Shown here piece by piece: positions 3 through 20,000 of a stretch of 20,000 nt of DNA (within the stretch, counting starts at the first letter, position 1; each line of letters starts with the position of its first letter). Below the pieces are notes generated by a model. It worked only from the letters and a program-made list of their open reading frames with translations, did not search any database and had not been told where the DNA came from. Source of the DNA: an uncultured virus (IMG/VR IMGVR_UViG_3300035698_035315) (lineage: Duplodnaviria; Heunggongvirae; Uroviricota; Caudoviricetes); the IMG/VR virus record IMGVR_UViG_3300035698_035315, positions 51,703 to 71,702 of that record. One strand, 5' to 3'. The position numbers and the translations under genes were made by a program.

Positions 3-590
3 GGCTATTGCAATGACAATTTGCTGCACCTGACGGTAAAAGACCCTATTTTTTGTGAGTGGTGGAATCATCATTTTGGTAAAGATTCACAAAGCAAAAA
101 GATTCCAGCATGGGTAGAGTTGCTTCCGAAGGACAAATTGATATGGCTTCTTCGTGGGATGATAGACAGTGACGGTTGTATTAACAAAGAGAAGAAAAAG
201 GGTATTGTATCGGCATCAATTACTACCACGAATGAAAAGTTGATGCATCAAGTCTTTCAAATAGGAATTAAATGTGGTATTCCTTTTTCATTCAAGAAGA
301 ATGACGGACGTATGGTCGAAATTGCCAATCATAGACAAAGTATGGGAAGAGACTCGTTTACTGTTTATATTTCTGATGCCGAGAAAACTTCTTCTTTGAT
401 TCGTGGATGTGCAAAAGAGCTTCCTATTTCTATTGGAAAACCAACCGTTAATCAGAACTACAAGGAGATTGATGGTAGATTCTATTATCGGATTGGTGGT
501 GTATCTGAAGTCCCATATCATGGTTGGGTCTACAATCTTGAAGTTGATGGAGACCATACTTATTGTACTGCTCAAGTCCGTCATCATAAT
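3..590 (+). mobile_element. C-terminal part of a LAGLIDADG-containing intein in the portal gene
   Basis: Second LAGLIDADG motif 'WLLRGMIDSDGCI', block F 'VYNLEVDGDHTY', and block G 'HHN|C' (AAT 588-590, Cys TGC 591-593). Confidence 0.93.
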
Positions 591-1883
591 TGCTACATAT
601 TTCATGAGTGGGATGAGAAGTCTAAGAAATGGGATAGGATAGTTATACTTCCTCCTGAAGAGGTTGCAGTATTTCAGTATCCATTTTCTGATATTGCTCG
701 TGTAGAGTATAAGCCTGAGCGTTTAATGCAGTTACTTGAGTCTTCGGAGGATATGCAAACATCTGAAATGGATGATTTGTCTCGTGAGATTGTGTTGAAC
801 ACTCCAGATGAAATCAAGAAGATGGTTAGAAAGAACGGGGCTATCATAATGGACACTGATCCAACAAGTGGGTCTTTTGTTCATCACATGGCTCGGATGC
901 GGTCCCCATACATGGATTTGGGCGTATCTGTTCTTGAGCGAGTTTTGATACCGATGCTCATGAAAGAGCATTACAGGTATACGCAGTTATCGTTAGCAAG
1001 TCGTAATATGACACCGAAGAACAAGATACAGGCTCCGATGTTGACGGGGGATCAGCTTGAGGATTTACGGACTCAGATAGACCTTTCGTATTTAGACCCT
1101 GAGTATTCTATTGTTACGAATTACGAATGGGATTGGGAGCAAATTGGTGCTGACGCAAGATTGCTTGATTTGTCGCGTGAGTATGAGGTAATTGAGAGTC
1201 AGGTTTTTGCAGGCTTAGGAGTAACTCGCGAGCTTTTGACTGGCGAAGGTTCGTATAGTGGCAATCGTATAACAGTTGAAATTCTCAACACAATGTTTCT
1301 CATTGTTCGTGAGGTATTACAAGAGTATGTTGAGCACAAGTTGTTCAAGCCTGTTGCCGAGGCACATGGCTGGTATGAAGAGGGCAAGAATGGCGTAAAG
1401 AAGTATTGGTATCCTAGACTTGGGTTCAACCGGCTTACGATTCGTGACAATCAGGAAGTATTTGACAGTCTTTTTCAGTTGTATCAGAAGGGCAGTTTAC
1501 CTGTTGATATCATCTATGAATTGTTCAATCTTGATCCTGATTCCATTCACGAGAAGATTTACGAAGACTTGTTTACCGTAAAGGACCCCACTTTCAATCG
1601 TGCAGTAGAGAACATCAATGATGATACTGGCCGCGCTCTTGTAGAGCGTAGTGATGTTGTTGACAGGGTTGGTAAATATCTTGGATTGAAAGTAAAGCCA
1701 CCTGAAGGTGAAGAAGATGGCGGATTTGGTGATTTTGGTGGCGGATTTGGCGATGAAGAGGGCGGTGATGGTGGTTTAGAAGCTGAAGCTGAAGAATTGG
1801 CATCGACCATTTCAGAGGAATTACCAGCAGACTCTTCTGATGAGGAAATTGAAGAAGTAGTTGATTCGGTTTTAGAGGAGTAA
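3..1883 (+). CDS. Phage portal protein containing an intein (5' end lies outside the window)
   Basis: The frame is open from position 3. The C-extein (from Cys at 591) has portal-like segments: 'HHMARMRSPYMDLGVSVLERVL' and 'IESQVFAGLGVTRELLTGEGSYSG'. It has an acidic Gly-rich tail and is the first gene of a protease/scaffold/MCP module. Confidence 0.8.
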   Translation, partial: GYCNDNLLHLTVKDPIFCEWWNHHFGKDSQSKKIPAWVELLPKDKLIWLLRGMIDSDGCINKEKKKGIVSASITTTNEKLMHQVFQIGIKCGIPFSFKKNDGRMVEIANHRQSMGRDSFTVYISDAEKTSSLIRGCAKELPISIGKPTVNQNYKEIDGRFYYRIGGVSEVPYHGWVYNLEVDGDHTYCTAQVRHHNCYIFHEWDEKSKKWDRIVILPPEEVAVFQYPFSDIARVEYKPERLMQLLESSEDMQTSEMDDLSREIVLNTPDEIKKMVRKNGAIIMDTDPTSGSFVHHMARMRSPYMDLGVSVLERVLIPMLMKEHYRYTQLSLASRNMTPKNKIQAPMLTGDQLEDLRTQIDLSYLDPEYSIVTNYEWDWEQIGADARLLDLSREYEVIESQVFAGLGVTRELLTGEGSYSGNRITVEILNTMFLIVREVLQEYVEHKLFKPVAEAHGWYEEGKNGVKKYWYPRLGFNRLTIRDNQEVFDSLFQLYQKGSLPVDIIYELFNLDPDSIHEKIYEDLFTVKDPTFNRAVENINDDTGRALVERSDVVDRVGKYLGLKVKPPEGEEDGGFGDFGGGFGDEEGGDGGLEAEAEELASTISEELPADSSDEEIEEVVDSVLEE

Positions 1884-1887
1884 TCTG

Positions 1888-3753
1888 ATGAGAATGGAAG
1901 CTAGGATGTTGATTCGACTGGCTATGCTTGAGCATGGTATTATTGCTCAAGACGAACAGTCTGTCGAAGAAAAAGACAAGCAACCGCCAGTTGAAGAATC
2001 CGAAGAGAAGCAGTCAGAGGGGGATGAAAAATCTGATGATTCGGGTTCATCTGAATCCGAAGTTGACAAACAATCTGAATTCAAAAAACTCGTTATTGAC
2101 AAAGTAAAAGAGAAGTTGCAGTCGAATGGAAAAGCAGAAGATATAGTAATTGTTTCTTCTGATAGTTCCAAGGTTTCCAAGGTTGCTAAAGACATTGGTC
2201 TCAATATGGAAGTGACTGAGGACAATGTTCATGACGTGCTATATTCTCTTGGCGAAATGATGGACGAAGAGGCGCCCGGCGATGAAGAGGAAAAAGCAGA
2301 AGAACGTGAAAAGCCAAACAAGATGACAGAAGAGGAGGCGGAAGAGGCGGAGAGGTCTGATGATAACCAGTCTGATAAAAAACAGTCTGAAGAAGAGACA
2401 GAGAATTCTGACACAGAACCAGTTAAGAAGAAAGACAATTCAAAGAGTAACAAGATTGAGAAGGAAGTAAAAGAAAAGGCAGAGGATGTCAAGGAGAAGG
2501 CTGAAGATGTGGCAAAGGCGATGAATACAGAAGATGTAGTTGAGCTTTTCAATCGTGTAGTTGAAATGGTCACACTTTTGATAAAAGCTAATCCTCCCCG
2601 TATTCGTCGTAAGTCGTCTGATAACGCATATATGGAAAATGTTATAGACCGAATGGCAGATCGATATCTACGAGTAGCTACTCAGCTTGTAGTGGCTGCG
2701 GATAAAGATATTCCAGAAGGATATGAATTGCATGTTTTTGAGAAAGGTCCTGACGAAGGAAAAAAGATATACAGAACAAAGAAGCAGGTGAAGGGCGAAT
2801 ATCATTATGCTCCGGTTGAGGGTGAGAAGTATAGTGTTGACCGTTTCAAGAAAAAGAAAGAAGAGCCAGGAACAGAGAAGCCTGTTGAGAAACAATTTGA
2901 ATCTTTTGGTAATGCTGATTCGGTAGGTACGGCCAAATGGCACAATTCAGAAGAGCCTTTGGATGTTGAGAATGAAGGATTGATGGCGAAACGTGGTTTT
3001 ACAAAGATAGAGCCTGATTCGATTCAATTGGATGATGATATGCAGGTTGCTGATATCAAGACAGGGAAAATTTATCGTTTTGGCGATTTACCCCAGGAGT
3101 TTCAAGATAGAATAAAGTCTATTGTGGCTACAAAAGGTGCATGGAGGGCTCCTACGGATGCTGTTCTATCAAAAAAGCCAAATGAAGAATCTGAGAAGCC
3201 CAAAGCAGAGTCGGAAAAGCCCAAAGTAGAATCGAAAAAGATAGATAAAGCCAAGAGTAGTGTAGGTGAAATTGGCAAGGTCAAAGATTTCAAAGAGCTG
3301 ATTAGCAAGTTCAATGCAATTTTGAAGGATACTGGGGTAGATGAGGGATTTGCCAAGTTTATGCAATCCTATGTTTACAATTTACCAGAAAGTGAAATGG
3401 CACATTTACAAGGCAAGACTACACGGGAAATAATGGAATTGGTTATGAGTGAAATGTTGGACGGATATGCTTCCACAAAGGCTGCCTCAATGCGCTCTGC
3501 TGCAATAGCTGAAAGATTAGCAGAAGATTTGATTGCATTGAGTCTTGTTCGTCAAGCTGTTCGAGGATTACAGGTAAAACGTAAAGACAAGGACACAATG
3601 AGCGACACAGGTGGTAGTAGTAAAGGGCGACAGCGAGAACCTGAAATTAAGCCGCCTCGTGATGACTTGAAAAAGCATTTTCGTAAGAAGCGTAAACGTC
3701 CCGGCGAGATGGATAAGGATGTAGATTGCGACCCAGATAAGCGGCCAGACTGA
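1888..3753 (+). CDS. Large Glu/Lys-rich hypothetical head-region protein (621 aa)
   Basis: Long ORF with a GAGGAG SD. Low-complexity, with short internal repeats (EKAEDV x2, ESEKPK x2). No recognisable catalytic motif. Confidence 0.75.
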   Translation: MRMEARMLIRLAMLEHGIIAQDEQSVEEKDKQPPVEESEEKQSEGDEKSDDSGSSESEVDKQSEFKKLVIDKVKEKLQSNGKAEDIVIVSSDSSKVSKVAKDIGLNMEVTEDNVHDVLYSLGEMMDEEAPGDEEEKAEEREKPNKMTEEEAEEAERSDDNQSDKKQSEEETENSDTEPVKKKDNSKSNKIEKEVKEKAEDVKEKAEDVAKAMNTEDVVELFNRVVEMVTLLIKANPPRIRRKSSDNAYMENVIDRMADRYLRVATQLVVAADKDIPEGYELHVFEKGPDEGKKIYRTKKQVKGEYHYAPVEGEKYSVDRFKKKKEEPGTEKPVEKQFESFGNADSVGTAKWHNSEEPLDVENEGLMAKRGFTKIEPDSIQLDDDMQVADIKTGKIYRFGDLPQEFQDRIKSIVATKGAWRAPTDAVLSKKPNEESEKPKAESEKPKVESKKIDKAKSSVGEIGKVKDFKELISKFNAILKDTGVDEGFAKFMQSYVYNLPESEMAHLQGKTTREIMELVMSEMLDGYASTKAASMRSAAIAERLAEDLIALSLVRQAVRGLQVKRKDKDTMSDTGGSSKGRQREPEIKPPRDDLKKHFRKKRKRPGEMDKDVDCDPDKRPD

Positions 3754-3782
3754 GGCGAGGCCACAAGAACCGAGGACATAAG

Positions 3783-4040
3783 ATGAAAAGAGAAAGGATA
3801 GCAAAGATGGTTGATCGTATTGCACAGGATGAAGAAAGCAAGCCTTTGATGAATGTTGATCAGGCGATAGATAACATGGTAGCTGCAATAGTGACTATTG
3901 ATGAGAATCTTTCGGCCATTGATACCGAAACTCCAGCACAGAAAAAAGCCCTTGTGACTGTTCGGGATTTAGTAGAAACGGCAGTAGCCCCATACACGGC
4001 TGACATTATCAAAGCCATGGAGGCTTTTGAAACGGGGTAG
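3783..4040 (+). CDS. Hypothetical protein (85 aa)
   Basis: GAGGA SD upstream, tight packing, N-terminal 'IAKMVDRIAQDEE'. Confidence 0.7.
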   Translation: MKRERIAKMVDRIAQDEESKPLMNVDQAIDNMVAAIVTIDENLSAIDTETPAQKKALVTVRDLVETAVAPYTADIIKAMEAFETG

Positions 4041-4433
4041 ATGATGGCTAATAATACAGGTCTTGATACTGATATTACTCAGAAGACTTTGACGGCTGCT
4101 GATCTTGTTCAAAATGATGAATTGACGTTCCCATATCCTGAAGGTGGTGGGCCACGTCGTGCACCTGGAAATGGTTGCACGGTTTGTGTTCACAAGGGAT
4201 ATTGTACGGCTTTGTATTACTTTAGGCGTTACACAAAAGCAGAACCTGACAAGAACAATGGCACGGATTGCAAATCATGGTCTAAGAATCCTAAAGACCA
4301 AATCAAGAAATGGTCACAGCATGATGTTGATGAAAACATTCGCTTGACTGCGATAGATGGCATTCTCACCGAGCCGAATCGTAATGGAATTGTAGAGCCT
4401 ACGACTGGCGCACCTAACAAACCGTTCATGTGA
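4041..4433 (+). CDS. Hypothetical Cys-motif protein, possibly metal-binding
   Basis: Abuts the upstream stop codon. Contains CxxC-x5-C ... C ('CTVCVHKGYC...TDC'). Confidence 0.7.
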   Translation: MMANNTGLDTDITQKTLTAADLVQNDELTFPYPEGGGPRRAPGNGCTVCVHKGYCTALYYFRRYTKAEPDKNNGTDCKSWSKNPKDQIKKWSQHDVDENIRLTAIDGILTEPNRNGIVEPTTGAPNKPFM

Positions 4434-4443
4434 GAGGGGAATT

Positions 4444-4848
4444 ATGCCTCGTGATATTCAAGAAGTTGTGAAGCGTGGAGTTAATCGGGACGATTTTATT
4501 CGTGGCGTTGAGTCAAAAGCATCGCGCAGGCGTCCTACTCGCACAAGAGTAAAGGTTAAAGGGACATTATTTGCGATACGAAACAAGCGTTTGGCAATAC
4601 GTGAGGCGGCATTACGTAAAGTTCAAATAGCGTTCACTTACAAAAAGATTACTACGAACAAGTCCAAAAAGTACATTGTGGCTCCGTATGAATTCAAATA
4701 TCGTCGTCTAAAGATAGGTGTGCGTAAGATGTTGTATGCTTATGATATGGAAGCAAAACATATCAAGTCGTTTGCTTTGAAGAACATTCGAAATGTAGCT
4801 CTTACTGATAGGAAGTTTCGACCGAAATGGCCCATTTTGATTACTTGA
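4444..4848 (+). CDS. Standalone WYL-like domain protein (134 aa, basic)
   Basis: 'IAFTYKK...KYIVAPYEF...MLYAYDMEAKHIKSFALKNIRNVALTDRKF' matches the WYL pattern (I.F.Y, V.PY, YL.A.D, R.F.L..I..V). GAGGGG SD. Confidence 0.7.
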   Translation: MPRDIQEVVKRGVNRDDFIRGVESKASRRRPTRTRVKVKGTLFAIRNKRLAIREAALRKVQIAFTYKKITTNKSKKYIVAPYEFKYRRLKIGVRKMLYAYDMEAKHIKSFALKNIRNVALTDRKFRPKWPILIT

Positions 4849-4860
4849 TATAGTCAAAAG

Positions 4861-4880
4861 TTCACAATTCTTTTATATTT
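4861..4880 (+). promoter_or_regulatory. Putative phage promoter motif TTCACAATT(C/T)TTTTAT, copy 1
   Basis: Intergenic TTCACAATTCTTTTATATT closely matches the cores at 13236-13254 and 13797-13812. Confidence 0.5.
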
Positions 4881-4920
4881 AGGTTTGTAGTAGAGAAAAA
4901 AAGTTAATGGAGGCTTACTG

Positions 4921-5703
4921 ATGAAACGACGTGGAAGCTCATTTTATAGGTCGGAAGTTGCTCCAATGTTCCAACAATTTAGTGTTGGCGACATTGTGAC
5001 GCCGCTCTTTTTGGACACTTACCCGGTCGTTCATGGGACGATTGTTGATGTGCGGCCCAAAGAGGCCAAGATTTATGTAGCGTGGAATAATGGTCCTATA
5101 AAACAACATGACCCTGATGAGATACAGGTTGTGCCTTTTGAGGCTCGCCGGGTATCACGAGTTGTCAAGAAAAGCAAAGATTTGAAGTCTGAAGACAAGT
5201 ATGTTGGTGATCCCAAGACGCATGGAATTGATAAGCCCCGTGGCGGCGGCTTTTCGATATTACAAGATTTAGCTGATGACTTACATGAAGAGAGTTATGA
5301 AGAGGCCCAAAAGCAGACTAAAGAAATTGAGAAAGAATTGAAGAATCGTCGTGGGAGCAGATTAGGCGAAACTCTTCTCGAAAAGTCTACGACTTGGCAT
5401 GAAGATGGTTCAGTAGAAAAGAAAGTAAGGATGTGGGAAGACGATTACGACTATGATGGTGATGAATACGATGATGAAGACGATGAAGATGAGGTTTTTG
5501 AGGTTAGTGATTTGCGTCGTGCTGTTTATCATAATGAACGTGGTAGAATATACAGGCGGACTCGTCTTGAAGGTGATTCAAGCGTGTTGATATGTCCACG
5601 TTGCAAGAGTGATGGCTTAGAATTACAGCCATTTACGAAAAGCGTGAAGATATACATTTGTCCTGAATGTGGATGGAAAATTACAACTGACAAGCTTATA
5701 TAG
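4921..5703 (+). CDS. Hypothetical protein: N-terminal SH3-like barrel, acidic linker, C-terminal zinc ribbon
   Basis: 'FSVGDIV...GTIVDV...YVAW' at the N-terminus and 'CPRC...CPECG' at the C-terminus. GGAGG SD. Confidence 0.75.
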   Translation: MKRRGSSFYRSEVAPMFQQFSVGDIVTPLFLDTYPVVHGTIVDVRPKEAKIYVAWNNGPIKQHDPDEIQVVPFEARRVSRVVKKSKDLKSEDKYVGDPKTHGIDKPRGGGFSILQDLADDLHEESYEEAQKQTKEIEKELKNRRGSRLGETLLEKSTTWHEDGSVEKKVRMWEDDYDYDGDEYDDEDDEDEVFEVSDLRRAVYHNERGRIYRRTRLEGDSSVLICPRCKSDGLELQPFTKSVKIYICPECGWKITTDKLI

Positions 5704-5712
5704 GAGAATCTG

Positions 5713-6105: not shown

Positions 6106-6125
6106 AATCATAAAAGGATTTGTTG

Positions 6126-7481: not shown

Positions 7482-7946
7482 ATGTCAGAACACGAACGTA
7501 TGATTGGATTGTTGTTGAGTAATCCGACTATTTTGGGAAAAGCGTTAGATTTTCCAAAGGTTTGGATACGTTGCAAAGAATATATAATTGATCCGGTTAC
7601 ACAAGAGAAAGCGGACTTGATATTTCAGAACAAGTATAATGCTTATCGTGCCGAACTTGATACAGTTTGTTTTGTAGTAGAGTTGAAGAGTGATCAGGCC
7701 GATCATGAGGTAGTTGGTCAGCTTCAGAAAGCAGTTGATCTTATGGCCAAGACTGGGCCGCGAATAGGCCATTGGTATGACACCAAGGGTATAGCCATTG
7801 CTAAACAGTATACAGCTAGTGGGTTGCGCTTGCTTCATAATGCGGGTTTTCGTGCGTTTTTATGGGGAGAGTCGGAAGAATCAGGTGTTTTTCTTAGAGA
7901 GCTTAGTTCTAAGAAACGCAAGAAAAAATCGTTTGCGGTAACATAG
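7482..7946 (+). CDS. PD-(D/E)XK nuclease resembling the NucS/EndoMS C-terminal domain
   Basis: 'KEY...KADLIF...FVVELKSDQADHEVVGQL...GIAIA' matches the E...D...E-x-K...Q restriction-endonuclease-like fold. Confidence 0.75.
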   Translation: MSEHERMIGLLLSNPTILGKALDFPKVWIRCKEYIIDPVTQEKADLIFQNKYNAYRAELDTVCFVVELKSDQADHEVVGQLQKAVDLMAKTGPRIGHWYDTKGIAIAKQYTASGLRLLHNAGFRAFLWGESEESGVFLRELSSKKRKKKSFAVT

Positions 7947-10403: not shown

Positions 10404-12689
10404 ATGCCAGCAAGACGTTGCACCTCAGAGTCATGTTTGTTGGAAGCGGCTCACAAGAGTCGTCTTTTTTCTTTAGAACTTCCTGTTGCTGACATTTTAC
10501 ACAATCCGCAACGGGAATGGTTGATTCGTTCGTTGGGCAATCGAAAGCGTGTAGCATCTGATCGTAAGATCTCGGTTGATTGGAAAAAGTTCAACGTAGA
10601 AGACTATTTTTTCACTCATTGTACAATCGTTTGTTCGGTTGTCACAGCTTCAAACGGGTACTACATAGAGCCTCCTTGTGATGAGCTTGTGAACAACAAT
10701 GGAAATGCTTGGAATAACGAAGTTTTGTTATCCACGTTTAGGTCATTTGTTGGGGCTGAGAACTATTTTGAACACATGCAGGCGCCTGAGCTTTCTAAAG
10801 GAAAGATTTTAGATGCGGTTATACGCCCAGTAAACTATAAGGGCAAGAATGGCAAAACAGCCGATATTTACTATACAGATATTTTGGTAGCAACTGACCG
10901 CAAGCACATTGATTTGGTAGAGCGGATTGAGAAAGGCGAGTTGAATACATTATCCATGGGCTGTTTTGAAGCTGGTACTTTGGTAACTATGGCTAATGGC
11001 ACTCGTAAGCCTATTGAGACTATAGAAAAAGGCGAGCGAGTAATTAGTCATCGTGGTTATGCAAGAGAAGTATTGCGTCCAATTAAAACGCAATGGCTTG
11101 GCGATATGTACAAGGTTCATGTTGAAGGAAGACCTGAGCCGATAGTTTGTACTGGGAATCATAAGTTTTGGTCATGGCAAAGACCTCCGTATTGTGCCTG
11201 TGGTTGTGGGGAATCTTTGCCTGATGCGAGTGTTTGGAATAAGCGAAAAAGTTTGAAAACGTCATTTGTAAATGGCCATAGAATGCGTGTTTTGAATCCG
11301 ATGGTTGAATATAGTGTAAGTGAGAAAGAACGACGGCTGGCGATTTTGGACGAGGCGGCGCAACCGCATTTTGAATGGAAGGAAGCTCGCGGTCTTGAGG
11401 CAGGAGCCTATCTTACAATTCCAAGTGAATACTCGATTGGCTCAGAAGATGTTTCTGTTGCTCGTGCTCGTTTGTTGGGTCTTTATTTGGCAGAGGGTTC
11501 AATAAACAACTGTGGTGGCTATAAATCAGTTGGGTTTACTTATTCACTCTATGAGAAAGATACTCTTGCTCAAGAGACAAAAGAACTGCTTGCTAAAGAG
11601 TTTGGAGTCGAATCATCAGTTTATGAACGAAGTGACAGAAATACGTGTGAAACCAGAACACACAAGAATGATTTTGTTACAGAATGGTTTCAAAGTCATG
11701 GCGGGCATTATTCTTGGGCTAAGGCTATTACTGAGGGTGTATTGCATTGGCCGCTTGATGCGTTACGAGCACTTGTCGGTGGATGGCTTGATGGTGATGG
11801 GTGTATGCATGAGGGCGGTCGTAAACGAATTATAGGTGTTACTGTTAGTGCTGACTTGGCGAGTCAGATAAGTCTTATTTTGGCTCGTTTGGGAATCTAT
11901 CATACGTGGAATGTGAAGGATGAATATGAGTCTGTTGAAAATGGAGTTATTGTTCCGCATCGTAAAAGCCACTATATTACAATTCCTTCAAGTGTTGTTC
12001 ATTTAGTAACACCATTTACAATGCGGTGGAATGATGGTGACCCAAGGCCAATTCACTCGCGTTGTCATATTCAGCCATCTTCAGAGAACGTAGTTGTGCG
12101 CGTGAAGAAGGTTGAACAGTTACGTCCGATACATGATGATAATGAACTATCGACAGTATATTGTCTTGAAGTTGAAGAAGAGCATAGTCTGTTAGTTGGT
12201 GGTAGTGTAGGAGTTCAGAACTGCGTCGCCCATTGGGTTACATGTAGTAAATGTGGCAAAGAGATAGCTGATGAGAAAGACAATTGTGAGCATATCAATA
12301 AAGAGTTGATGACATACTTTACGGATGATAAAGGTGTCAAACGTATAACAGCAGAACTCTGTGGGCGCACCTTTGAGTCGAATGGAAAAAGAGTAGGGGA
12401 CCAAGAATCTGTTCAGTTTATTGAGGCAAGTTGGGTTGAGCGTCCGGCTTTTACAGGGGCAGTTTTGAATTACTATGTTAGTGATATTCCAGAAGAGAAG
12501 AAGGCGAGTCTTCTGGAATACTCTTCGATGGACACGATGTATACCAATCTTGCCCAACTGAGGGTTGCTGATACAACTGGGATGATGGCGGTTCGTCTTG
12601 CCAAGGAAGAAGTGAAACGTTTGAATCTTGTCTATCTTGTTAATCGTGTAGCAATGAATGGTGTTAAATTCAGAAAGAAGGAGGCTTGA
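10404..12689 (+). CDS. Prohead (capsid maturation) protease precursor with intein; about 341 aa after splicing
   Basis: Exteins show 'YFEH...KGKILDA', 'IEKGELNTLSMG|C' (putative catalytic Ser), 'CSKCG...CEH' and 'FIEASWVERPAFTGA', as in HK97-type phage maturation proteases. Lies between the portal and scaffold/MCP genes. Confidence 0.8.
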   Translation: MPARRCTSESCLLEAAHKSRLFSLELPVADILHNPQREWLIRSLGNRKRVASDRKISVDWKKFNVEDYFFTHCTIVCSVVTASNGYYIEPPCDELVNNNGNAWNNEVLLSTFRSFVGAENYFEHMQAPELSKGKILDAVIRPVNYKGKNGKTADIYYTDILVATDRKHIDLVERIEKGELNTLSMGCFEAGTLVTMANGTRKPIETIEKGERVISHRGYAREVLRPIKTQWLGDMYKVHVEGRPEPIVCTGNHKFWSWQRPPYCACGCGESLPDASVWNKRKSLKTSFVNGHRMRVLNPMVEYSVSEKERRLAILDEAAQPHFEWKEARGLEAGAYLTIPSEYSIGSEDVSVARARLLGLYLAEGSINNCGGYKSVGFTYSLYEKDTLAQETKELLAKEFGVESSVYERSDRNTCETRTHKNDFVTEWFQSHGGHYSWAKAITEGVLHWPLDALRALVGGWLDGDGCMHEGGRKRIIGVTVSADLASQISLILARLGIYHTWNVKDEYESVENGVIVPHRKSHYITIPSSVVHLVTPFTMRWNDGDPRPIHSRCHIQPSSENVVVRVKKVEQLRPIHDDNELSTVYCLEVEEEHSLLVGGSVGVQNCVAHWVTCSKCGKEIADEKDNCEHINKELMTYFTDDKGVKRITAELCGRTFESNGKRVGDQESVQFIEASWVERPAFTGAVLNYYVSDIPEEKKASLLEYSSMDTMYTNLAQLRVADTTGMMAVRLAKEEVKRLNLVYLVNRVAMNGVKFRKKEA
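10962..12221 (+). mobile_element. 420-aa intein with a LAGLIDADG homing endonuclease
   Basis: Block A 'CFEAGTLVTMANG', block B 'CTGNHKF', LAGLIDADG motifs 'LLGLYLAEGS' and 'LVGGWLDGDG', block F 'VYCLEVEEEHSL', C-terminus 'VQN|C'. Confidence 0.93.
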
Positions 12690-12691
12690 GG

Positions 12692-13165
12692 ATGGTTAGG
12701 AGACGAAGGCTTACCACGAGATTAGCTGCTGCTAAGAAAGAGGAGAAGAACGAAGACAATGGCGCTCTCAAGGATGCCGACAAGGATTGGTCTGAATTGA
12801 CAAAAGCATCTCAAAAAACGTCCTCTTTGAGGCGGCGGAAAGCATCTGATGATTGCCCAGGATGTAACCCGCTGATGCGTGAAATTGTGGCAATGGAAAG
12901 GGTACTTGCACAAGGCGAAAGTGGCACAGCAGAAATTGAACAGTACGAAAAAGAAATTGATGCTCAGCCTGCTGATGTTGAAATTCTTGATGAGGCTAAA
13001 ACACTTTTCGATGAAGAGGCCGACATCATACAGGAAAGCTTGATTGTCGATGTTGGTAAAGTTGATGAGCCAATGGATTATACAGACCAAAATACAAAAA
13101 TGTCTTCCGACGATTCACTGGCAAGACAACTAATAAGTCTTGCGCAAGCTTTATTAGAAGAATAA
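12692..13165 (+). CDS. Acidic hypothetical head protein, possibly scaffold-related
   Basis: AAGGAGG SD 7 nt before ATG 12692. Arg-rich N-terminus and an amphipathic C-terminal helix 'LARQLISLAQALL'. Confidence 0.7.
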   Translation: MVRRRRLTTRLAAAKKEEKNEDNGALKDADKDWSELTKASQKTSSLRRRKASDDCPGCNPLMREIVAMERVLAQGESGTAEIEQYEKEIDAQPADVEILDEAKTLFDEEADIIQESLIVDVGKVDEPMDYTDQNTKMSSDDSLARQLISLAQALLEE

Positions 13166-13251: not shown

Positions 13252-13311
13252 ATTCTCTCTTGTATGGTGTCTTTTGTTTTTATGAGGTTTTACGAGAAAG
13301 GAAGGGATGTT

Positions 13312-13812: not shown

Positions 13813-13898
13813 TCTCTCTTTTTTATTCTCTCTTAGTGTAGAAGTAGAAGCCTGTTGACTTTCAGGGTTATTTGACCCAAGTTAGAAAGGAGATACGG

Positions 13899-14882
13899 AT
13901 GGTCCGTCGAAGAATTACTCGGATTGGAAAGAAAAAGCCGCGTAGTCTTGTTGCTGAAATTGCGGCTGTGGAAAAACAATTGGGAATGTATTCTCAGGAC
14001 GATGACTTAGACGATGATCTTTTAGAAGATGAATTAGAAGATGACTTAGAAGATGACTTAGAAGATCTTTTAGAAGACGACTTAGAAGACGACTTAGAAG
14101 ATGAATTAGAAGACGACTTAGAAGATGATCTTTTAGAAGATGAATTAGAAGATGATCTTTTAGAAGATGACTTAGAAGACGACTTAGAAGACGACTTAGA
14201 AGACGATTTGCTGATAGACGAGTCCATCTTGTCACAAGACGAAGATGAAGATGCCGAAGAAGACTACGAAGATGCCAAAGACGAAGAAGATGAAATTGAT
14301 GACGAGATTGAAGTTGAGGACGATGAAGATATTGAAGCTATGCTTTATTCAGAAGATGAAGAGGCTTCAGAGGAACTTATCGAAGAAGAATTCAATGTAA
14401 TGTCTCAAGACGATGACGACGACGATGACGACGATGATGACGATGATGACGACGATGATGACGACGATGATGACGACGACGACGACGACGACGACGACGA
14501 TGATGACGACGACGACGACGATGACGATGATGATGAAGACGATGACGATGAGATTGCTTGTGTAACATCGAGGCGCAATTCTTCTCGCAGGCGAAGGAAA
14601 GCTTCACGTCGCAGGCGTTCTAGCGAAGAAGAGCCTGGCATAGAAGACGAGATTACTCAGGATTCTCTTAGTGATGTTGAAGACGAGCGTGGCAAAGAAG
14701 ATTTGGCGACTGAACCTTCGACGCTATCAACAGCCCCAACTTCTTGCACTGCACGTTATCAGGAAGCATCGAAGCGTCTTGACAGGGTGGCAAGTTACTT
14801 TGAGAATCAAGGTCGTAAAGATTTGGCTTTGCGAGTAGATAGGCTGGCAGACGCGGTTGATGCTTTGCTGCCGAACAAATAA
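13899..14882 (+). CDS. Extremely acidic scaffold/core-like protein (327 aa)
   Basis: AAAGGAG SD before ATG 13899. EDDL repeats and a 42-Asp run, with Arg-rich patches and a C-terminal helical segment. Confidence 0.75.
   Translation: MVRRRITRIGKKKPRSLVAEIAAVEKQLGMYSQDDDLDDDLLEDELEDDLEDDLEDLLEDDLEDDLEDELEDDLEDDLLEDELEDDLLEDDLEDDLEDDLEDDLLIDESILSQDEDEDAEEDYEDAKDEEDEIDDEIEVEDDEDIEAMLYSEDEEASEELIEEEFNVMSQDDDDDDDDDDDDDDDDDDDDDDDDDDDDDDDDDDDDDDDDDDEDDDDEIACVTSRRNSSRRRRKASRRRRSSEEEPGIEDEITQDSLSDVEDERGKEDLATEPSTLSTAPTSCTARYQEASKRLDRVASYFENQGRKDLALRVDRLADAVDALLPNK
13998..14213 (+). repeat. Coding minisatellite of 12/15-nt units (GAAGAYGAHTTA) encoding EDDL/EDEL/EDDLL
   Basis: Tandem repeats read directly from the sequence. 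Confidence 0.92.
14409..14552 (+). repeat. GAC/GAT trinucleotide run encoding D42-E-D4-E
   Basis: 14409-14534 is 42 consecutive Asp codons. Confidence 0.95.
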
Positions 14883-14925
14883 GTCAAGTTCATCTTGTGA
14901 AAAGGTCGAAAGAAAGGAGAGAATA

Positions 14926-15882
14926 ATGTCGAGGCGACGGAATCGTTTAACGGCTAGTAATCGTCGCAGAGAACGTAAGGCTGTTGAGGACAGCATTCCT
15001 TATCCCGGAACGGTTAACCAACCGGATCGTCGGTTTAAGAAATGCCAAGAGTATAACACGTTTGAGCAGACTGTAAACCACGAACTCCCAGATATGCGGA
15101 CAGAGTGGAAAGAAGATGCTCATGATGAAATCGGTTTTGGTATTCCTGAAGCTGGTGGGCCTACTGTTGCCAGCATCAAGGCTGCGGCTTCCAAAGCTGT
15201 GAAGCTGGCAGTTTTGCTTCTCGGGGATAAGGTCAAAGAACAGGTTATTGAGAATCAGGCTCGCGACTTCATGAAGCTTGGCAATAAGTGTCTTGATAGG
15301 GCTCTGAAGCGCTTTGCTCAGACCGAGGACATTTACGCTGCTGATGAAGATAAAGATGAAGGCGAAAAACAGGAAGAAAAGGACGAAAAGGTTGAAAAGG
15401 AAGAAATAAAGGAAGAAAAGGTAGAGGAAGAAAAGGACGAAGAGGCTGACGAGGAAAAGGAAAAAGAGGCTTCTGAGGACGAAGAGAAAAAGAAAAAGGA
15501 CGAAGAAGAGGCTGAGGCAGAGGCTGCTAAGACAATCCAAGAAGAGGCTGAAGAAAAGGCCAAAGAAAAAGAAGCAAGCGCGGCTGAGTTTGACATAGAG
15601 TTGCAGTCAATGTCGGATGAAGGCATGCGTGAAGATGCAGCCGCCGACAAGGTACTTGCAAGTCTCTATGCTCAGGACGAAGAAGCCGACGAAGAAGCCG
15701 ACGAAGATGAATCCGGCGATGAAGATGAGGGAAAAGAAAAGACCTCATCGAAGAAAGCTACAAAGCAGGGCGTCAAAAAGCTTGGCGGCCAGCCGAAAAA
15801 AGCATCTGTTTCGTCAGATGATGCTGTCAATTTGAGCGAGCTTTGGGTAGACGCTCCTGACGTGGGCGATGTGTTTAAGTAA
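14926..15882 (+). CDS. Putative capsid scaffolding protein (318 aa)
   Basis: AAAGGAG SD before ATG 14926. Glu/Lys-rich, coiled-coil-like, with a C-terminal 'LSELWVDAPDVGDVFK'. Directly upstream of the decoration and MCP genes. Confidence 0.6.
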   Translation: MSRRRNRLTASNRRRERKAVEDSIPYPGTVNQPDRRFKKCQEYNTFEQTVNHELPDMRTEWKEDAHDEIGFGIPEAGGPTVASIKAAASKAVKLAVLLLGDKVKEQVIENQARDFMKLGNKCLDRALKRFAQTEDIYAADEDKDEGEKQEEKDEKVEKEEIKEEKVEEEKDEEADEEKEKEASEDEEKKKKDEEEAEAEAAKTIQEEAEEKAKEKEASAAEFDIELQSMSDEGMREDAAADKVLASLYAQDEEADEEADEDESGDEDEGKEKTSSKKATKQGVKKLGGQPKKASVSSDDAVNLSELWVDAPDVGDVFK

Positions 15883-15932
15883 GCCTGACGTGGGCTTTTA
15901 CTGGTCGTTTTTTGTAAAGGAGGAACTGAGAC

Positions 15933-16442
15933 ATGGCCTTGACGATTCTGATTCGTGGCCACCTCAACGCGATTCCTGTTCTCGCAGATGTTTGCTATAC
16001 AAAGGCAAACTATGGCGTGAACACGAATAACTCGCTGAGTATTAACACTCCGCGTGGCGTAATTGGTGGCTCAATTGCTGCAATCAGTGCTGGTAACGAC
16101 TACACTGTCGTTCCAGGTCACATTGACTTGCAGCCTGTTGGGTTGTTTGTCAACGATGCCGCTGGTGCGGCCTATGAGAACGCTCCTGCCGTAGCAAGCG
16201 GTAAGGTAACGGTCATGAAGGCTCAAGCTAGTGTCGAAGTTGACGTGTTTGAAACTCGTAATGCAGCTAATTCAGCAGATATTACTTACGTTGTAGGTAA
16301 TTTACTGTATAGCTCAGCACAGGGTTTCTTGACGAACGAATTGCCGTCCGATATTGGTGGTTCTGTTGATACTGTAATTGGTATCATGACGAAAGCACCT
16401 ACGACGGTTTCACCTACCATGGGTTTAGATGAAAGAATATAA
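15933..16442 (+). CDS. Head decoration/cement protein (169 aa)
   Basis: AAGGAGG SD. Small Gly/Ala/Val-rich beta protein ('PVGLFVND...SGKVTV...YVVGNLLY...GFLT...VIGI..KAP') immediately before the MCP. Confidence 0.75.
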   Translation: MALTILIRGHLNAIPVLADVCYTKANYGVNTNNSLSINTPRGVIGGSIAAISAGNDYTVVPGHIDLQPVGLFVNDAAGAAYENAPAVASGKVTVMKAQASVEVDVFETRNAANSADITYVVGNLLYSSAQGFLTNELPSDIGGSVDTVIGIMTKAPTTVSPTMGLDERI

Positions 16443-16475
16443 GCCCTGGTATAAGGCTGACAAGAGGAGAAAAAA

Positions 16476-19400
16476 ATGTCCGTAGACAATAAGACTAAGC
16501 AGGAAATCATCAGCCAATACATCAAGACTGCCGCTGGCCGGCAGCGTCTTGCGGCGAGCATTAACTGAATGGTGCTCGTAAAATCCGGTAAATTGCTGGG
16601 ACACCCTTAGACATGAAAATCAACGGCATAACAATTAGCGAAACGAGATTGACGAAGCTGACGGCTATATTAGCTAATAAGGTTTATAGTTACATGTCCA
16701 AGGACAATCAGCATCCGAGCCTTGTTGGAAACGACGAGGAAGGTTCAACGACTGGAGACGAGGCTAAGGGCCAAAAAGCCTATGCCGGTAAGGTCTCGCC
16801 TGCATTCGGTAACGATGTGGGTATGCCGGGCATTCTTGAGAAAAAGAATGGTGATACAGTCTGAACTCATCGGTAACGGTGAGAGGTAGGTTGAGAGACC
16901 TATCCGCCTTGTGCAAGCAAGGTTGTAACAGAATGGATTCAGCCTCTTCGTCGGCGTCGGGACTACACTTCCGTGGGATAACGTACCGTCTCACGTTAAA
17001 CTCGGTAAATTGCTGGAAACTCATGGAGAAGTTGTAATGCGTGAGGTTTTGAACAAAGAGTTGCTAACAAAACTCTACGTTCTTGATAAGAGAACTGATA
17101 GAGAAATTGCTGGCATACTTAATGTTCATCGTGCATCAGTTACAGTGGCTCGAAAGAGACATGGAATAAAAAAGATTAGAGAGTATGAGAGGAAAAATCT
17201 CTCTGATTTGTCTGATGTGCAGACTTCATTGATCGACGGTTCCATATTAGGTGATGGAGCAATAGAACGTAACCATTCAAGTTCGTATGTTTTTTCTTTT
17301 GGACACTCACAAAAACAACACAGTTATGCTAAGATGAAAGCGAAGATTCTTGGAGATTATTTTAGTAATGTTAGAATTGACAAGAAAGGCATGATGCGTG
17401 TCAGGTCGATTGTGCATCCTGTCTTTGGTGAATATCGAAAAGAATGTTATATCAACATAGATGGCAAGTGGCATAAAAGAATGCCCAAATCGTTATTGGA
17501 CAGATTGAATCTTTACTCGCTTTCGGTGTGGTACTGTGATGATGGTTGTCAGAGTGGCAATCAGGTTTGGTTTTGTGTGGGGTGTCCAGTTGAAGAAGAC
17601 CGCGAGAACGCAATTTCGGTTATTGAAGATAAATTTGGACTTTCTTGTTCTATTCATAAGATGAGCAGGGAAGAATGTTGGAGACTTTGTGTGTTAAAGC
17701 GTTCTCAAGAGAAATTTTTTGATATTGTGAGTGGTTTCGTTAGCATTGCAATACCGTACAAGATACCTAACTGGTATCAAGTGCGGCATGACAATCAGCA
17801 GCCAAGCCTTTTTGGAAACGAAAAGGTGGGTTCAACGACTGGTGGAAGCCTAAACTCTGATAAAGAGCATGGCGATAACACACGCCTTGATTGGGAGACT
17901 AATCAGGGTACGCCGGGTGCCTGTATGATGAAACAGGTGAAGATACAGTCTGAACAGCAGTTAATTCTTGGTAGCTGTTGAGTCTGGCAGAAATGACCAG
18001 AACGGTATCTTGAAAAAGATACTTGTAACAGATTGCGCAAGGCGTTCTTCGTCGAACAGTTGCCCGATGGTGCTTTGCCGATTTACGACAAAGACCCAAA
18101 CGTCACCGCTTATGTGATCGGTGAGGAAGGCGAGAACATCGTTGCGGTTGCAAAGCCAAAGCGTGTTCTTTTCCCGCTGTTTGAAATTGCGTCGAATCCT
18201 GAAATTCAACTCACTGAGGTTAAGTCTCGTCGTTTTGACCTTAATACCCATGGGGTCGCTGTTTAGAGATAAACAGATAAAAATATCCCGTAAATTGCTG
18301 GAACCCAAATGAGTAACGAATTTTCTGAAACTATGATGAAGACAAATTTGAACAATGATGAGGTTCGCAGTCTATATCAGAATGGTTTTTCTGATATTCA
18401 GATTGCCAAACAACTTCATGTTGGTCGTGCTAAACTTCGTGCTTGGCGTGAATCTAATGGTATTCCGTCAAAAAAGAAGGTTGTGCAAAAATTATCTTTA
18501 TCAGAATTGCAGAAAATTGTAGAAGGGCTAAATGCCGGTCAAACACTTACCAACATATCAAGTGAATTGAACATGAGTCGTGTAACCTTAGCTAAGATGA
18601 TCAAGAAGGCGGGACTTTCTTACAAAGAATACCGTCCTGCTCATCCAGTTGAGATTGACGATTATGTTCTTACACAAGTTCAAAAAGAAGTTCTTTTGGG
18701 TGATATGTTTGGAGATGGCGGACTAGTGCCTACTAGCAAAAAAAATGCTTATTATCAATGCGCTCATAGTATTGGTCAAAAGTCATTTTTATACTGGAAG
18801 GCGAATGTTTTCCATCCTTTGACTTCCAGAGTAGGAAGTTATAAGACCAAAGATGGTGAATACGTGCGAATGGGGACGTGGACAAGTGGTTGTCTCAAAG
18901 CTTATCATCAAGATTTTTATCCTGATGGAAAAGGCAATAAGACAATTACAGTCTCACTTGCAAATCGTATGACACCATTGGCATTAGCTGTTTGGTACAT
19001 GGGCGATGGTTCTATCAACAGGAATACCGGAGTATTTCATGTTGGAAGGCAAATTGAGTTTTATCAAGTAGCAGAAATTCTATCTGATAAGTTTGAAATG
19101 CTGTTGAAGGCATGTCGTTATGAACGTGAATGGCATCTTAGGGTTATGAATCCTGAAAAGTTTTTCACGCTTATATCGCCATATCTTCTTGAATCATTCG
19201 GGTATAAAGTTCCCAAAGCCTATCGTGAACTTGTTGGCAATCAGCAGCCGAGCATTCTTCCAATAATGGAGCAGACTGAACGGATTGGTGAAAACCGATT
19301 CCTCAGTGTGTCGAAAGAGAATGAAGGTTCAGAGACTGGTGGAAGCCTAAACTCTGATAAAGAGCATGGCAATAACACACGCCTTGTGAAGTTATCACAG

Positions 19401-20000
19401 GGTATGCGGGACATCCATTCCTCGTTGGATGAAGATACAGTCCACTCTACATCACTTCGATAAGATGTAGGTTGCATTGAGAGAAGTGTAGATCTGGCGA
19501 AGTCGGAGATTCAGGCTGAGGAAGACCGTAAGGTGTTCGCAGTCATGGACGCTCTCGCAACGGACCCGACGAACCCCAACCCGGACATTCCGGTAACGGG
19601 CAACCTGACGGCCAATGCGTTGGCAGATGCTTTTGCCAACATCGAGCGTACCGACATTCGGGTCGCTAACGTATTTCTCAATGCCAAGGATTATGCAGAC
19701 CTACGTAAGTGGGACCGCGATACCCTTGACATCGAGACACAGCAAGTCTTGCTGAAGACTGGCCTGATGGCAACGCTTTGGGGTGCGAAGCTTATCGTAT
19801 CTCGTATTGTTCCTGAAGGAACGGTTTATGTGTGTGGAGAACCTGAGTTCTTCGGACGCATCCCAGTAAGAACAGAGCTTACTGTTCTCTCCGCTGACGA
19901 CCCTAAGAACAGGCTGATTGGTTTCTCTGTTTTCGAGAACATCGGAATTGGGGCATACAACCCATTTTCGCTTCAACGCCTGGTTATCACGAGAGTCTAA
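16476..20000 (+). CDS. Major capsid protein, spliced: join(16476-16561,16936-16978,18036-18241,19475-20000), 286 aa
   Basis: GAGGAG SD and ATG 16476. Exons total 861 nt and join in frame: ...RQRLAASM/IQPLRRRRDYTSVG/RKAFFVEQLPDGALPIYDKD...RRFDL/IERSVDLAKSEIQAEEDRKVFAVMD...ITRV*. HK97-fold-like features are present (backbone helix, 'LWGAKLIVSRIVPEGTVY'). Confidence 0.88.
16562..16935 (+). ncRNA. Group I intron 1 (374 nt, no intact endonuclease) in the MCP gene
   Basis: P1 GCGAGCAU/GUGCUCGU with a U.G wobble, P10 CUGAAU/AUUCAG, P 'AAATTGCTGG', Q 'AATCAGCA', R 'GTTCAACGACTG' (16743), S 'GATACAGTC' (16853), terminal G16935. Confidence 0.92.
16979..18035 (+). ncRNA. Group I intron 2 (1057 nt) with an endonuclease gene
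   Basis: P at 17007, P5 TCATG/CATGA, Q at 17793, R at 17830, S at 17940. It ends TTGTAACAGATTG, like intron 1 (TTGTAACAGAATG). The 5' boundary is set by reading frame and is uncertain by 1 nt. Confidence 0.88.
17037..17981 (+). CDS. Intron-encoded homing endonuclease, N-terminal HTH plus LAGLIDADG_2-type domain
   Basis: GGAG SD then ATG 17037. HTH 'TDREIAGILNVHRASV'; motifs 'LIDGSILGDGAI' and 'LSVWYCDDG'. Confidence 0.88.
   Translation: MREVLNKELLTKLYVLDKRTDREIAGILNVHRASVTVARKRHGIKKIREYERKNLSDLSDVQTSLIDGSILGDGAIERNHSSSYVFSFGHSQKQHSYAKMKAKILGDYFSNVRIDKKGMMRVRSIVHPVFGEYRKECYINIDGKWHKRMPKSLLDRLNLYSLSVWYCDDGCQSGNQVWFCVGCPVEEDRENAISVIEDKFGLSCSIHKMSREECWRLCVLKRSQEKFFDIVSGFVSIAIPYKIPNWYQVRHDNQQPSLFGNEKVGSTTGGSLNSDKEHGDNTRLDWETNQGTPGACMMKQVKIQSEQQLILGSC
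18242..19474 (+). ncRNA. Group I intron 3 (1233 nt) with an endonuclease gene
   Basis: P1 GACCU/GGGUC with U.G, P2 CTGTTT/AAACAG, P3 TCCCGTA/TGCGGGA, P at 18292, Q at 19239, R 'GTTCAGAGACTG' (19327), S at 19432, terminal G19474. The junction CT|C restores the frame. Confidence 0.92.
18309..19463 (+). CDS. Intron-encoded homing endonuclease, two HTH segments plus LAGLIDADG_2-type domain
   Basis: HTH-like 'SDIQIAKQLHVGRAKL' and 'TLTNISSELNMSRVTL'; motifs 'VLLGDMFGDGGL' and 'LAVWYMGDGS'. Confidence 0.88.
   Translation: MSNEFSETMMKTNLNNDEVRSLYQNGFSDIQIAKQLHVGRAKLRAWRESNGIPSKKKVVQKLSLSELQKIVEGLNAGQTLTNISSELNMSRVTLAKMIKKAGLSYKEYRPAHPVEIDDYVLTQVQKEVLLGDMFGDGGLVPTSKKNAYYQCAHSIGQKSFLYWKANVFHPLTSRVGSYKTKDGEYVRMGTWTSGCLKAYHQDFYPDGKGNKTITVSLANRMTPLALAVWYMGDGSINRNTGVFHVGRQIEFYQVAEILSDKFEMLLKACRYEREWHLRVMNPEKFFTLISPYLLESFGYKVPKAYRELVGNQQPSILPIMEQTERIGENRFLSVSKENEGSETGGSLNSDKEHGNNTRLVKLSQGMRDIHSSLDEDTVHSTSLR

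Follow-up and report, generated by a model that had tools for sequence, protein, structure and literature searches.

Inteins in TerL, portal and protease genes and group I introns in the major capsid gene: predicted self-splicing elements sorted by host gene in a jumbo phage head module

The same type of homing endonuclease travels with inteins and with group I introns, both of which settle in the same conserved genes, and the reason why a gene holds one rather than the other is rarely testable. What governs the choice when a single head module holds both? The window analyzed here, 20,000 nt in length, spans positions 51,703 to 71,702 of the record IMGVR_UViG_3300035698_035315; coordinates labeled "genome" refer to the whole record, the others to the window, in which all features described lie on the + strand. 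A preliminary description of this DNA had named portal, protease and major capsid protein (MCP) genes as the hosts of the elements, and a PHROGs profile search of the window ORFs bore this out. The portal gene, the 3' part of which lies at 3..1883, matched phrog_16240 (E 7e-15); the complete ORF (genome 49236-53585) encodes 1449 aa, or 653 aa without both inteins. The head maturation protease gene (10404..12689; 761 aa, 341 aa without its intein) matched phrog_18299 (E 1e-11), and a sequence search returned no relative of the protease with a solved structure. The MCP matched phrog_2522 with exon 3 (E 2e-8) and exon 4 (E 2e-23). Together with the TerL gene upstream of the window (genome 42295-45204), these genes form an HK97-fold head module, as judged from PHROGs matches of the window ORFs and of element-free relatives. 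For the predicted MCP of an intron-free relative, the best Foldseek matches were HK97-fold capsids (E about 1e-5), the pLDDT of this AlphaFold model being only 57 and its residues 26-97 too poor for mapping the first two intron sites. The module comprises the head and packaging genes of a jumbo phage, kin of Bacillus phage G and Tunturi_5.

Seven self-splicing elements were recognized in the head genes, four inteins (one in TerL, two in the portal and one in the protease) and three group I introns, with six LAGLIDADG domains among them. The TerL intein and the first portal intein lie upstream, outside the window. The portal intein, the protease intein and the three MCP introns reported in the preliminary description were all confirmed, whether by profiles, by element-free relatives or by a spliced MCP frame of 286 aa. 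Its total of two inteins for the module was too low, another portal intein and the TerL intein upstream of the window bringing the number to four; its five splicing reactions become six for the portal, protease and MCP genes together, or seven once TerL is counted. Of the second portal intein, the window holds the C-terminal part (3..590; Pfam LAGLIDADG_3 and Hom_end), which includes LAGLIDADG motif no. 2. The whole intein has 403 aa, is inserted at extein site 223, begins upstream of the window (by 618 nt), ends in His-Asn before Cys, matches Intein_splicing (E 1e-6) and has counterparts at the same site in relatives. The protease intein (10962..12221; 420 aa; Pfam Hint and LAGLIDADG_3), whose boundaries were set by intein-free relatives, begins with Cys and ends in Gln-Asn before Cys, with Gln replacing the usual penultimate His. 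Its insertion point is after the LSMG motif, the Ser of which is the probable catalytic Ser. From the established roles of these motifs, we take the TerL intein to sit at the P-loop and the protease intein beside the probable catalytic residue. All four inteins have Cys at position 1, Asn as the last residue and Cys, Ser or Thr at +1, in frame, as in class 1 inteins. The protease intein matches Hom_end_hint at the cut-off and the TerL intein is over the cut-off for Intein_splicing; both portal inteins are below that cut-off (E 3e-4 and 1e-6). Pairwise identity among the four is only 23-27%, and intein-free alleles with matching flanks are present in relatives. The four inteins are thus predicted to be class 1 protein-splicing elements with LAGLIDADG domains.

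The MCP gene is divided into exon 1 (16476..16561), exon 2 (16936..16978; 43 nt, last base A), exon 3 (18036..18241) and exon 4 with the stop codon (19475..20000). Removal of the three introns leaves a single frame with 79% identity to the intron-free MCP P0001 and zero gaps. Intron 1 (16562..16935; 374 nt) scores 51.4 bits against RF00028, over the cut-off; the core of intron 2 (16979..18035; 1057 nt) scores 23.3 bits, below the cut-off, and three relatives (L058, L083 and L114) have introns at the same site. Intron 3 (18242..19474; 1233 nt) gave no RF00028 match, and an Rfam search with this intron alone returned chance matches only; it has P1, P3 and P7 motifs, a long P6 and a short P9. Weak Rfam matches to LOOT RNA, located in the periphery of the intron core, were set aside. 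The P3, Q, R and S motifs, the P7 G-C pair of the G-site and a P1 helix are found in all three introns, and the terminal G at each 3' splice site (G16935, G18035 and G19474) gives an in-frame MCP. A U-G wobble in P1 marks the 5' splice site of introns 1 and 3. The introns here share several features with IA-type group I introns of phages (T4 td and Twort, for instance): the core motifs, additional stems separating P7 from P3, and an endonuclease ORF overlapping the core; unlike in that type, the ORF here starts in the P5 region and intron 2 has an A-U pair. Introns 2 and 3 have 61 nt in common at 95% identity. Judged by the R-S core module, intron 1 is nearer to relatives' site-2 introns and intron 2 nearer to site-1 and site-3 types, a pattern that suggests exchange between neighboring introns. 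By these motifs the three are related group I introns, and their splicing is predicted.

The four LAGLIDADG endonucleases that had been described within the window are indeed there, in the portal intein, the protease intein, intron 2 and intron 3, with none in intron 1. The HTH-LAGLIDADG ORF of intron 2 (17037..17981; PF03161, E 2e-25) is 56-58% identical to the same-site ORFs of L058 and L083, begins past the P4 5' strand and crosses the ribozyme core, as does that of intron 3 (18309..19463; PF03161, E 2e-21). Matches to PF03161 and PF14528 are over the cut-off, two LAGLIDADG motifs with their acidic residues are readable in the translations, and the intron-encoded proteins are 24-33% identical between sites. 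Intron 1 lost its endonuclease through an in-frame internal deletion: the 83-aa remnant (16613-16864) aligns with the two ends of a LAGLIDADG-type ORF of 343 aa in the same-site intron of L058. At site 1, ORF loss is also seen in the introns of L343 and L360, the intron of L351 holds an HNH ORF instead of LAGLIDADG, and the site is filled in both clades. Endonuclease interference competition has a precedent in nucleus-forming phages, and the enzymes could be retained as weapons against head genes of co-infecting relatives, beyond homing. The acidic motif residues are apparently intact on inspection and empty alleles prevail (61 of 65 for MCP), as such a role would have it; the ORF losses in intron 1, L343 and L360, however, are what a neutral homing cycle predicts, and plain homing accounts for the remainder. 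We consider retention as weapons quite unlikely. Ordinary homing, by which each endonuclease would cut the empty allele and copy its own element in during co-infection, explains the endonucleases.

The 5' splice site of intron 2 departs from the canonical form. Within its P1 helix (16972..16995) the U-G wobble is absent from the inferred splice site and A16978-U16989 stands there instead, with U16979-G16988 one step on. The splice pair is U-G in 11 of the 12 introns of the family, including all three others at the intron 2 site. A cut after A16978 gives the conserved VGRK junction with the frame kept; one after the next U, with the 3' site unchanged, leads to 16 stops. Because the same U-G pair 3' of the splice pair also occurs in eight of the 11 canonical introns, the extra U-G of intron 2 is best read as an extension of P1. 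The P10 pairing is weak, with 2 bp at the junction (assigned partly by inspection). Assembly error was rejected as the source of the A-U pair, as two complementary positions are changed and two further assemblies have identical letters. Five other in-frame splice choices with a 5' exon ending in U were also discarded: each changes or removes Gly43/Arg44, adds residues, or has no U-G pair in P1. Changes in the U-G pair usually reduce efficiency and yield cryptic products (PMC11417360). Intron 2 might be cut at the U-G one base further 3', with a frameshift or another 3' site, leaving the gene impaired or the MCP two residues shorter. U16979 does pair with G16988 in the predicted P1, and one in-frame product near the normal end exists for this cut, with G18042 as the 3' site; yet that product loses the invariant Arg44, the pair is explained as P1 extension, and none of three records examined, all partial, has a second MCP copy. 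We hold this cut to be very unlikely. The preferred reading is that intron 2 is a variant descended from canonical group I introns, predicted to act as one and to splice after A16978 via the compensated A-U pair. In the literature searched, which missed most subscription and older papers, no case of a natural A-U splice site was found.

Does the division of element types between genes extend to relatives? Among distinct close alleles, inteins occupy 6 of 16 TerL, 5 of 20 portal, at least 10 of 30 protease (11 with L033) and none of 65 MCP alleles, and introns 4 of 65 MCP alleles and none of 66 in the other genes (p = 0.06). These rates exclude 80 loci ranked on full-length score, in which 0 of 62 MCP alleles were interrupted, and the site-1 introns found through the intron pattern; a scan for portal relatives gave 3 loci from a single sequence and 21 from an alignment. 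At least one intein is present in 28 of 120 portal proteins, that of the window included. TerL, portal (four sites) and protease (six sites) have 12 sites together, every one an intein. The comparison of these 12 with the three intron sites inside MCP gives a Fisher p of 0.002, for sites of which the latter three belong to one related family inside 84 codons of one gene and are possibly not independent. By gene length alone, the 12 intein sites would miss MCP with p = 0.14, which is not significant. In 50 related records (8.27 Mb), all eight RF00028 matches and all ten core-motif matches were MCP introns. No MCP intein was found in the 25 longer matches of 1538 candidates, nor in the one longer match of 7999, and no intein domain in 150 MCP representatives (the best 150 of 2440 HMM matches); two MCP sets are biased to uninterrupted genes, and clustering at 50% could mask an intein-bearing MCP. 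Three apparently long MCPs, P0146 (695 aa), P0024 (420 aa) and P0025, proved on inspection of their sequences to have no intein. Inteins were further found in helicase-type and other enzyme-like ORFs. The GenBank phage set, with only 4 intein and 19 endonuclease relatives, was too small for a host survey. Inteins are hence nowhere as common as introns in the MCP genes surveyed (0 of 65 close alleles, 0 of 150 representatives). The proposal that low-copy proteins take inteins while the high-copy MCP takes introns is upheld as a partition, with all 12 other sites held by inteins; the lack of MCP inteins, by itself, does not reach significance. We regard the sorting of element type by host gene in this phage family, with inteins in low-copy TerL, portal and protease and introns in MCP only, as real at the level of the sequences. 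No literature on MCP inteins, and no proposal of such a partition in titles or abstract openings, was found by the same search.

Copy number is a plausible candidate cause of this partition. Introns would be spliced from late mRNA and inteins from precursor proteins. An intein is produced 1:1 with its host, and the MCP would be needed in hundreds to thousands of copies per head; an MCP intein would more than double the polypeptide, free one endonuclease per subunit and, where unspliced, leave subunits that spoil the shell, and selection would clear such insertions. An intron would be excised a single time from each mRNA; its endonuclease is translated from a separate start and is deletable, as in intron 1. 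Translation cost alone is insufficient as an account, since mini-inteins of 133-134 aa occur in portals of relatives and none was seen in MCP; their absence points partly to folding or stoichiometry.

A second account turns on supply instead of cost. Reverse splicing into abundant RNA and local spread from one intron to the next would load the top late transcript with introns, and the lack of MCP inteins would be chance. The sequence shared by introns 2 and 3, the R-S modules and the length-based p value all fit, as do MCP introns detected in two unrelated families, phrog_3437 and phrog_10, by a junction pattern scan; that pattern was derived from an MCP junction, however, and its matches are no neutral sample. 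A 3'-junction pattern was too unspecific, with no MCP locus among the matches listed. Supply also leaves unexplained the absence of MCP from the 19 intein hosts in PhagesDB, and we judge it unlikely. Structural constraint has a lower probability still: an HK97 fold dependent on chaperone and scaffold would offer no conserved site for intein folding and splicing at any copy number, inteins favoring active-site motifs that MCP lacks. The positions of the TerL intein (P-loop) and of the protease intein (next to the probable catalytic Ser), and an MCP without even mini-inteins, agree with this; against it, four intein sites lie in the non-enzymatic portal, and the 13 conserved Cys/Ser/Thr columns of MCP supply possible +1 residues. 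Historical accident, one intron lineage having entered MCP and one intein pool the other genes without functional meaning, would suit just three intron sites of one family, the encoded proteins being 24-33% identical across those sites. Site 1, however, is filled in both clades, in L351 with an HNH ORF, and the four inteins are so divergent as to imply many separate invasions in the same direction, which makes accident highly improbable. Taken as a whole, the account to which we give somewhat better than an even chance is one of ordinary homing elements sorted by host gene through selection against MCP inteins, with intron 2 splicing after A16978. Its extension to a general rule is more doubtful. 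By that rule MCPs would be refractory to inteins through 1:1 synthesis, MCP genes would be the preferred home of group I introns and copy number would decide, while intron 2 would be a working natural ribozyme choosing a Watson-Crick A-U beside an unused U-G in the phage's most highly expressed essential gene.

MCP introns together with TerL inteins are already known from crAss-like phages and mycobacteriophage LittleE. The crAss-like Delta and Zeta groups resemble the present phage in having MCP genes with group I introns and, typically, a TerL intein, as in Delta phages, and one Zeta MCP is in five fragments; they are an unrelated family with introns also in PolB, in primase and in ATP_43b, while here introns were found only in MCP, and the text consulted proposes no copy-number rule and mentions inteins in neither portal nor protease (Yutin et al. 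2021, PMC7886860). LittleE (cluster J), with 775 capsid subunits, has a capsid intron with a homing endonuclease, its splicing shown by RT-PCR, adjoining an intein-bearing TerL; it differs in being a single intron with the canonical U and terminal G, with an endonuclease gene that lies on the opposite DNA strand (Pope et al. 2013, PMC3706429). TerL and portal are likewise among the hosts of class 1 LAGLIDADG inteins in actinobacteriophages, whose 784 inteins lie in 19 host proteins that include neither MCP nor a head protease, as against six protease sites here; the terms "major capsid" and "protease" are both absent from the available text (bioRxiv 10.1101/2025.01.02.630785). Faustovirus E12 and Mimivirus also have the MCP as a group I intron hot spot (five group I of 12 introns), although these are eukaryotic giant viruses with a different capsid fold (PMC6247863). 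Core genes of the Jug phages, also jumbo, hold numerous group I introns and some inteins; unlike here, introns split terL and nrdD (PMC12880540). Such entry into TerL speaks against any general confinement of introns to high-copy genes.

With both types in one operon, and filled and empty alleles at 15 sites, the family lets the effects of copy number, of fold and of transcript abundance be compared directly. Together with its three canonical relatives at the same site, intron 2 offers a natural matched set on 5' site choice without a wobble, which is relevant to the design of ribozymes for trans-splicing and for circular RNA. Annotation has to allow for MCP genes of this family that are split into four pieces, and for inteins that change the lengths of portal, protease and TerL.

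The window covers the last part of a 71.7-kb virus record whose completeness is 37% (CheckV), and the window's portal protein is also recorded on a 221,945-nt contig. In its last exon, the major capsid protein (MCP) shares 66% identity with a 485-kb uncultured phage, 47.5% with Tunturi_5 and 34% with Bacillus phage G, and by these sequence identities the source virus classes as a phage-G-like jumbo phage. The interrupted genes had been named portal, protease and MCP in the preliminary description, and PHROGs profiles agree. Window ORFs matched portal (E 7e-15), head maturation protease (E 1e-11) and major head protein (exon 3, E 2e-8; exon 4, E 2e-23), and element-free relatives matched the same families more strongly. 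The predicted model of a relative's MCP, of low confidence (pLDDT 57), was best matched by HK97 capsids.

The protease intein (420 aa) occupies positions 10962-12221. One portal intein starts 618 nt upstream of the window and ends at 590; a further one (393 aa) lies elsewhere in the whole portal ORF, and an intein of 366 aa sits in the P-loop of the large terminase (TerL). All four begin with Cys, end with Asn and precede a Cys, Ser or Thr. Each has a LAGLIDADG_3 match above the Pfam cut-off, and their pairwise identity is only 23–27%. Intein BLAST matches within the record all fell in TerL, portal and protease. The MCP gene is interrupted at codons 29, 43 and 112 by introns 1 (16562-16935), 2 (16979-18035) and 3 (18242-19474); without them the protein has 286 aa and aligns gap-free, at 79% identity, with an intron-free relative (P0001). 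Rfam scored intron 1 at 51.4 bits and intron 2 at 23.3 bits, below the cut-off, and missed intron 3. P1, P3, the P7 G-site and the terminal G are present in each, and the three group I core motif sets of the record are all within the MCP. The earlier tally of two inteins, three introns and four LAGLIDADG endonucleases stands for the introns; the module total is four inteins and six LAGLIDADG domains.

Two of the introns, 2 and 3, carry ORFs for PF03161 endonucleases whose N-terminal parts are HTH-like; these ORFs begin just after the 5' strand of P4 and run on through the core. Intron 1 holds an 83-aa remnant, which aligns with both ends of the 343-aa ORF in the same-site intron of a relative (L058); this match at both ends indicates that the endonuclease was lost through in-frame deletion.

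For the survey of relatives we fetched 80 MCP loci (via exon 4), 21 portal loci and smaller sets, chained the tblastn matches per gene, classed each insertion of at least 150 nt, merged alleles at 97% identity and counted only genes with enough coverage. Inteins were borne by 6 of 16 TerL, 5 of 20 portal and 10 of 30 protease alleles (chaining overlooked locus L033, seen otherwise) and by none of the 65 distinct close MCP alleles. Introns occurred in 4 of those 65, the window's own counted in, and in none of the 66 TerL, portal and protease alleles. The sorting noticed in the window is thus borne out in its relatives, where MCP inteins are not as frequent as introns. A second clade has inteins in 2/12 portal and 5/37 protease alleles, with no intron in either set; its 62 MCP alleles, chosen by full-length score, are an unfair sample. 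At least one intein was present in 28 of the best 120 among 584 portal proteins. The intein sites are 48 and 114 in TerL; 154, 156, 223 and about 340 in portal; and 72, about 100, 124, 157, 186 and about 240 in protease. Hint or Intein_splicing matches, most below the Pfam cut-off, were obtained in six in-frame insertions, each from a different site, and in a single helicase-type ORF; further intein-like matches lie in helicase-type ORFs (three in locus L016) and two other enzyme-like ORFs. L016 has a protease with three inteins and a DEAD/helicase-type ORF with three (L016:2490-6950, L016:16128-20522). In 50 whole records (8.27 Mb), all eight RF00028 and all ten core-motif matches were MCP introns, and 43 records had neither; most records are fragments, three of the seven with MCP introns were picked for that reason, and both scans overlook some introns, intron 3 among them.

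Searches for longer MCPs gave 25 matches among 1538 candidates (306–2000 aa) and 1 among 7999 (581–2000 aa), none with an intein, and the best 150 of 2440 matches to an MCP HMM, the longest of 445 aa, lacked Hint and LAGLIDADG; these searches used 50% clusters, which may conceal fusions. In the available part of a PhagesDB survey (784 inteins, 19 host proteins), the hosts include portal, TerL, minor capsid and tape measure, and no major capsid protein (bioRxiv 2025.01.02.630785). No report of an MCP intein, or of sorting by host gene, was found in the literature searched, of which coverage is incomplete. Fisher's test gave p = 0.002 for 12 intein sites outside and 3 intron sites inside the MCP; by gene length alone, 12 intein sites would miss the MCP with p = 0.14. 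For three intron sites all within the MCP p = 0.004, and these may be one local radiation; for intron occupancy (4/65 vs 0/66) p = 0.06, with allele counts not independent of each other. As a description of this phage-G-like family, the sorting is well supported.

The observation is real and its element types are all known. As far as the available accounts go, crAss Delta and Zeta phages (PMC7886860) and LittleE (PMC3706429) likewise have capsid introns beside TerL inteins, and the Faustovirus MCP is likewise an intron hot spot (PMC6247863). Jug phages differ in carrying introns within terL (PMC12880540), so that for introns the sorting is family-specific. Novel in this work are the test of the sorting across the family and the six protease intein sites. 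Similar group I introns interrupt the MCP of unrelated phages, at two sites in phrog_3437 and also in phrog_10, as well as one other gene (loci L336, L337, L339, L345, L350, L366, L369, L371; L370; L347; L338, L362, L364).

Stoichiometry is our preferred candidate for the cause. LAGLIDADG enzymes cleave empty alleles, which leads to homing; inteins splice as protein and group I introns as RNA, and the window's elements presumably behave likewise. A 400-aa intein within the 286-aa MCP would lengthen the polypeptide by ~140%, release one endonuclease per subunit and let unspliced subunits enter a shell built from several hundred subunits or more (PMC3706429 gives 775 at T=13). The cost of an intron would be paid once per mRNA, and its endonuclease, a separate ORF, could be dropped (intron 1; loci L343 and L360) or exchanged (HNH in L351). 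Mini-inteins of 133–134 aa occur in portals of the family and count against translation cost as sole cause. A rival to stoichiometry, RNA-level supply plus local spread of introns, is favored by 61 nt common to introns 2 and 3 (17829-17889 and 19326-19386; 95% identity) and by core modules apparently swapped between introns. A fold constraint and accident are further rivals. The R-S module of intron 1 is 61–67% identical to relatives' site-2 introns vs 60% to the L058 site-1 intron, and that of intron 2 is closer to site-1/3 types (70–73%); these resemblances suggest module exchange between adjacent introns, although the margins are small. Interference competition by the endonucleases is a less likely possibility. 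The site-1 introns of L343 and L360 have no ORF, and LAGLIDADG ORFs lie outside, directly 3' of the MCP (L343:1-1272 and L360:2-1249, both minus strand); a free-standing endonuclease possibly serves the ORF-less intron. Locus L372 (LR745208.1) has two LAGLIDADG ORFs directly after the MCP, and the site-1 intron of L351/L359 an HNH-type ORF in place of LAGLIDADG.

Intron 2 has an unusual splice site. The reading frame and the conserved Gly43-Arg44 demand a 5' exon ending at A16978, opposite U16989 in P1, with both partners altered relative to the canonical U-G. The three other known introns of this site, those of L058, L083 and L114, have U opposite G, as do 11 of 12 tabulated family introns; the A-U letters recur in two other assemblies, L001 (one mismatch in 10.5 kb) and L002 (none in 3.9 kb). 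No second MCP copy was found in the three partial records examined. Splicing after A16978 is quite probably functional, judged from sequence. The next base 3' of the A-U pair belongs to a U-G pair, as does the base beyond the splice pair in 8 of 11 canonical introns; a cut at this U-G would bring in 16 stops if the usual 3' site were used, or delete Arg44 if another were. The U-G is described as conserved, substitutions reducing efficiency and yielding cryptic products (PMC11417360, in part). The literature searched, incomplete in coverage, held no report of a natural A-U splice site; the compensated A-U variant, whose same-site relatives are canonical, is new here.

A short helix, K/R-x-A-x-x-L-x-x-L-A-K, recurs close to the N-terminus of small proteins unrelated to each other (window 5713, 7951 and 8405; genome 20970, 21989, 47222 and 47625; 7 matches to a regex) and is a candidate capsid-targeting leader; similar helices lie at window 13264 and at the C-terminus of 12686-13165. 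Two very acidic ORFs (13872-14882 and 14857-15882; 102 Asp and 56 Glu in 336 aa, a long poly-Asp run, LEDD-type repeats) precede the head genes, have no profile match and are candidate scaffold or core proteins. The 169-aa gene directly 5' of the MCP (15933-16442), kept in position in relatives and without a profile match, is possibly a head decoration protein; a 205-aa ORF resembling it precedes the portal (genome 48069-48686). Two other genes within the head module (window 4444-4848 and 7482-7946) encode a WYL-domain protein that stands alone (E 2e-5) and, by a weak match (E 0.01), a NucS-type nuclease. From translation, we take the N-terminal part of a 650-aa ORF between TerL and portal (genome 45273-47225) to be topoisomerase IB core-like, and a 1314-aa ORF (genome 16758-20702) is presumably an SNF2-like helicase.
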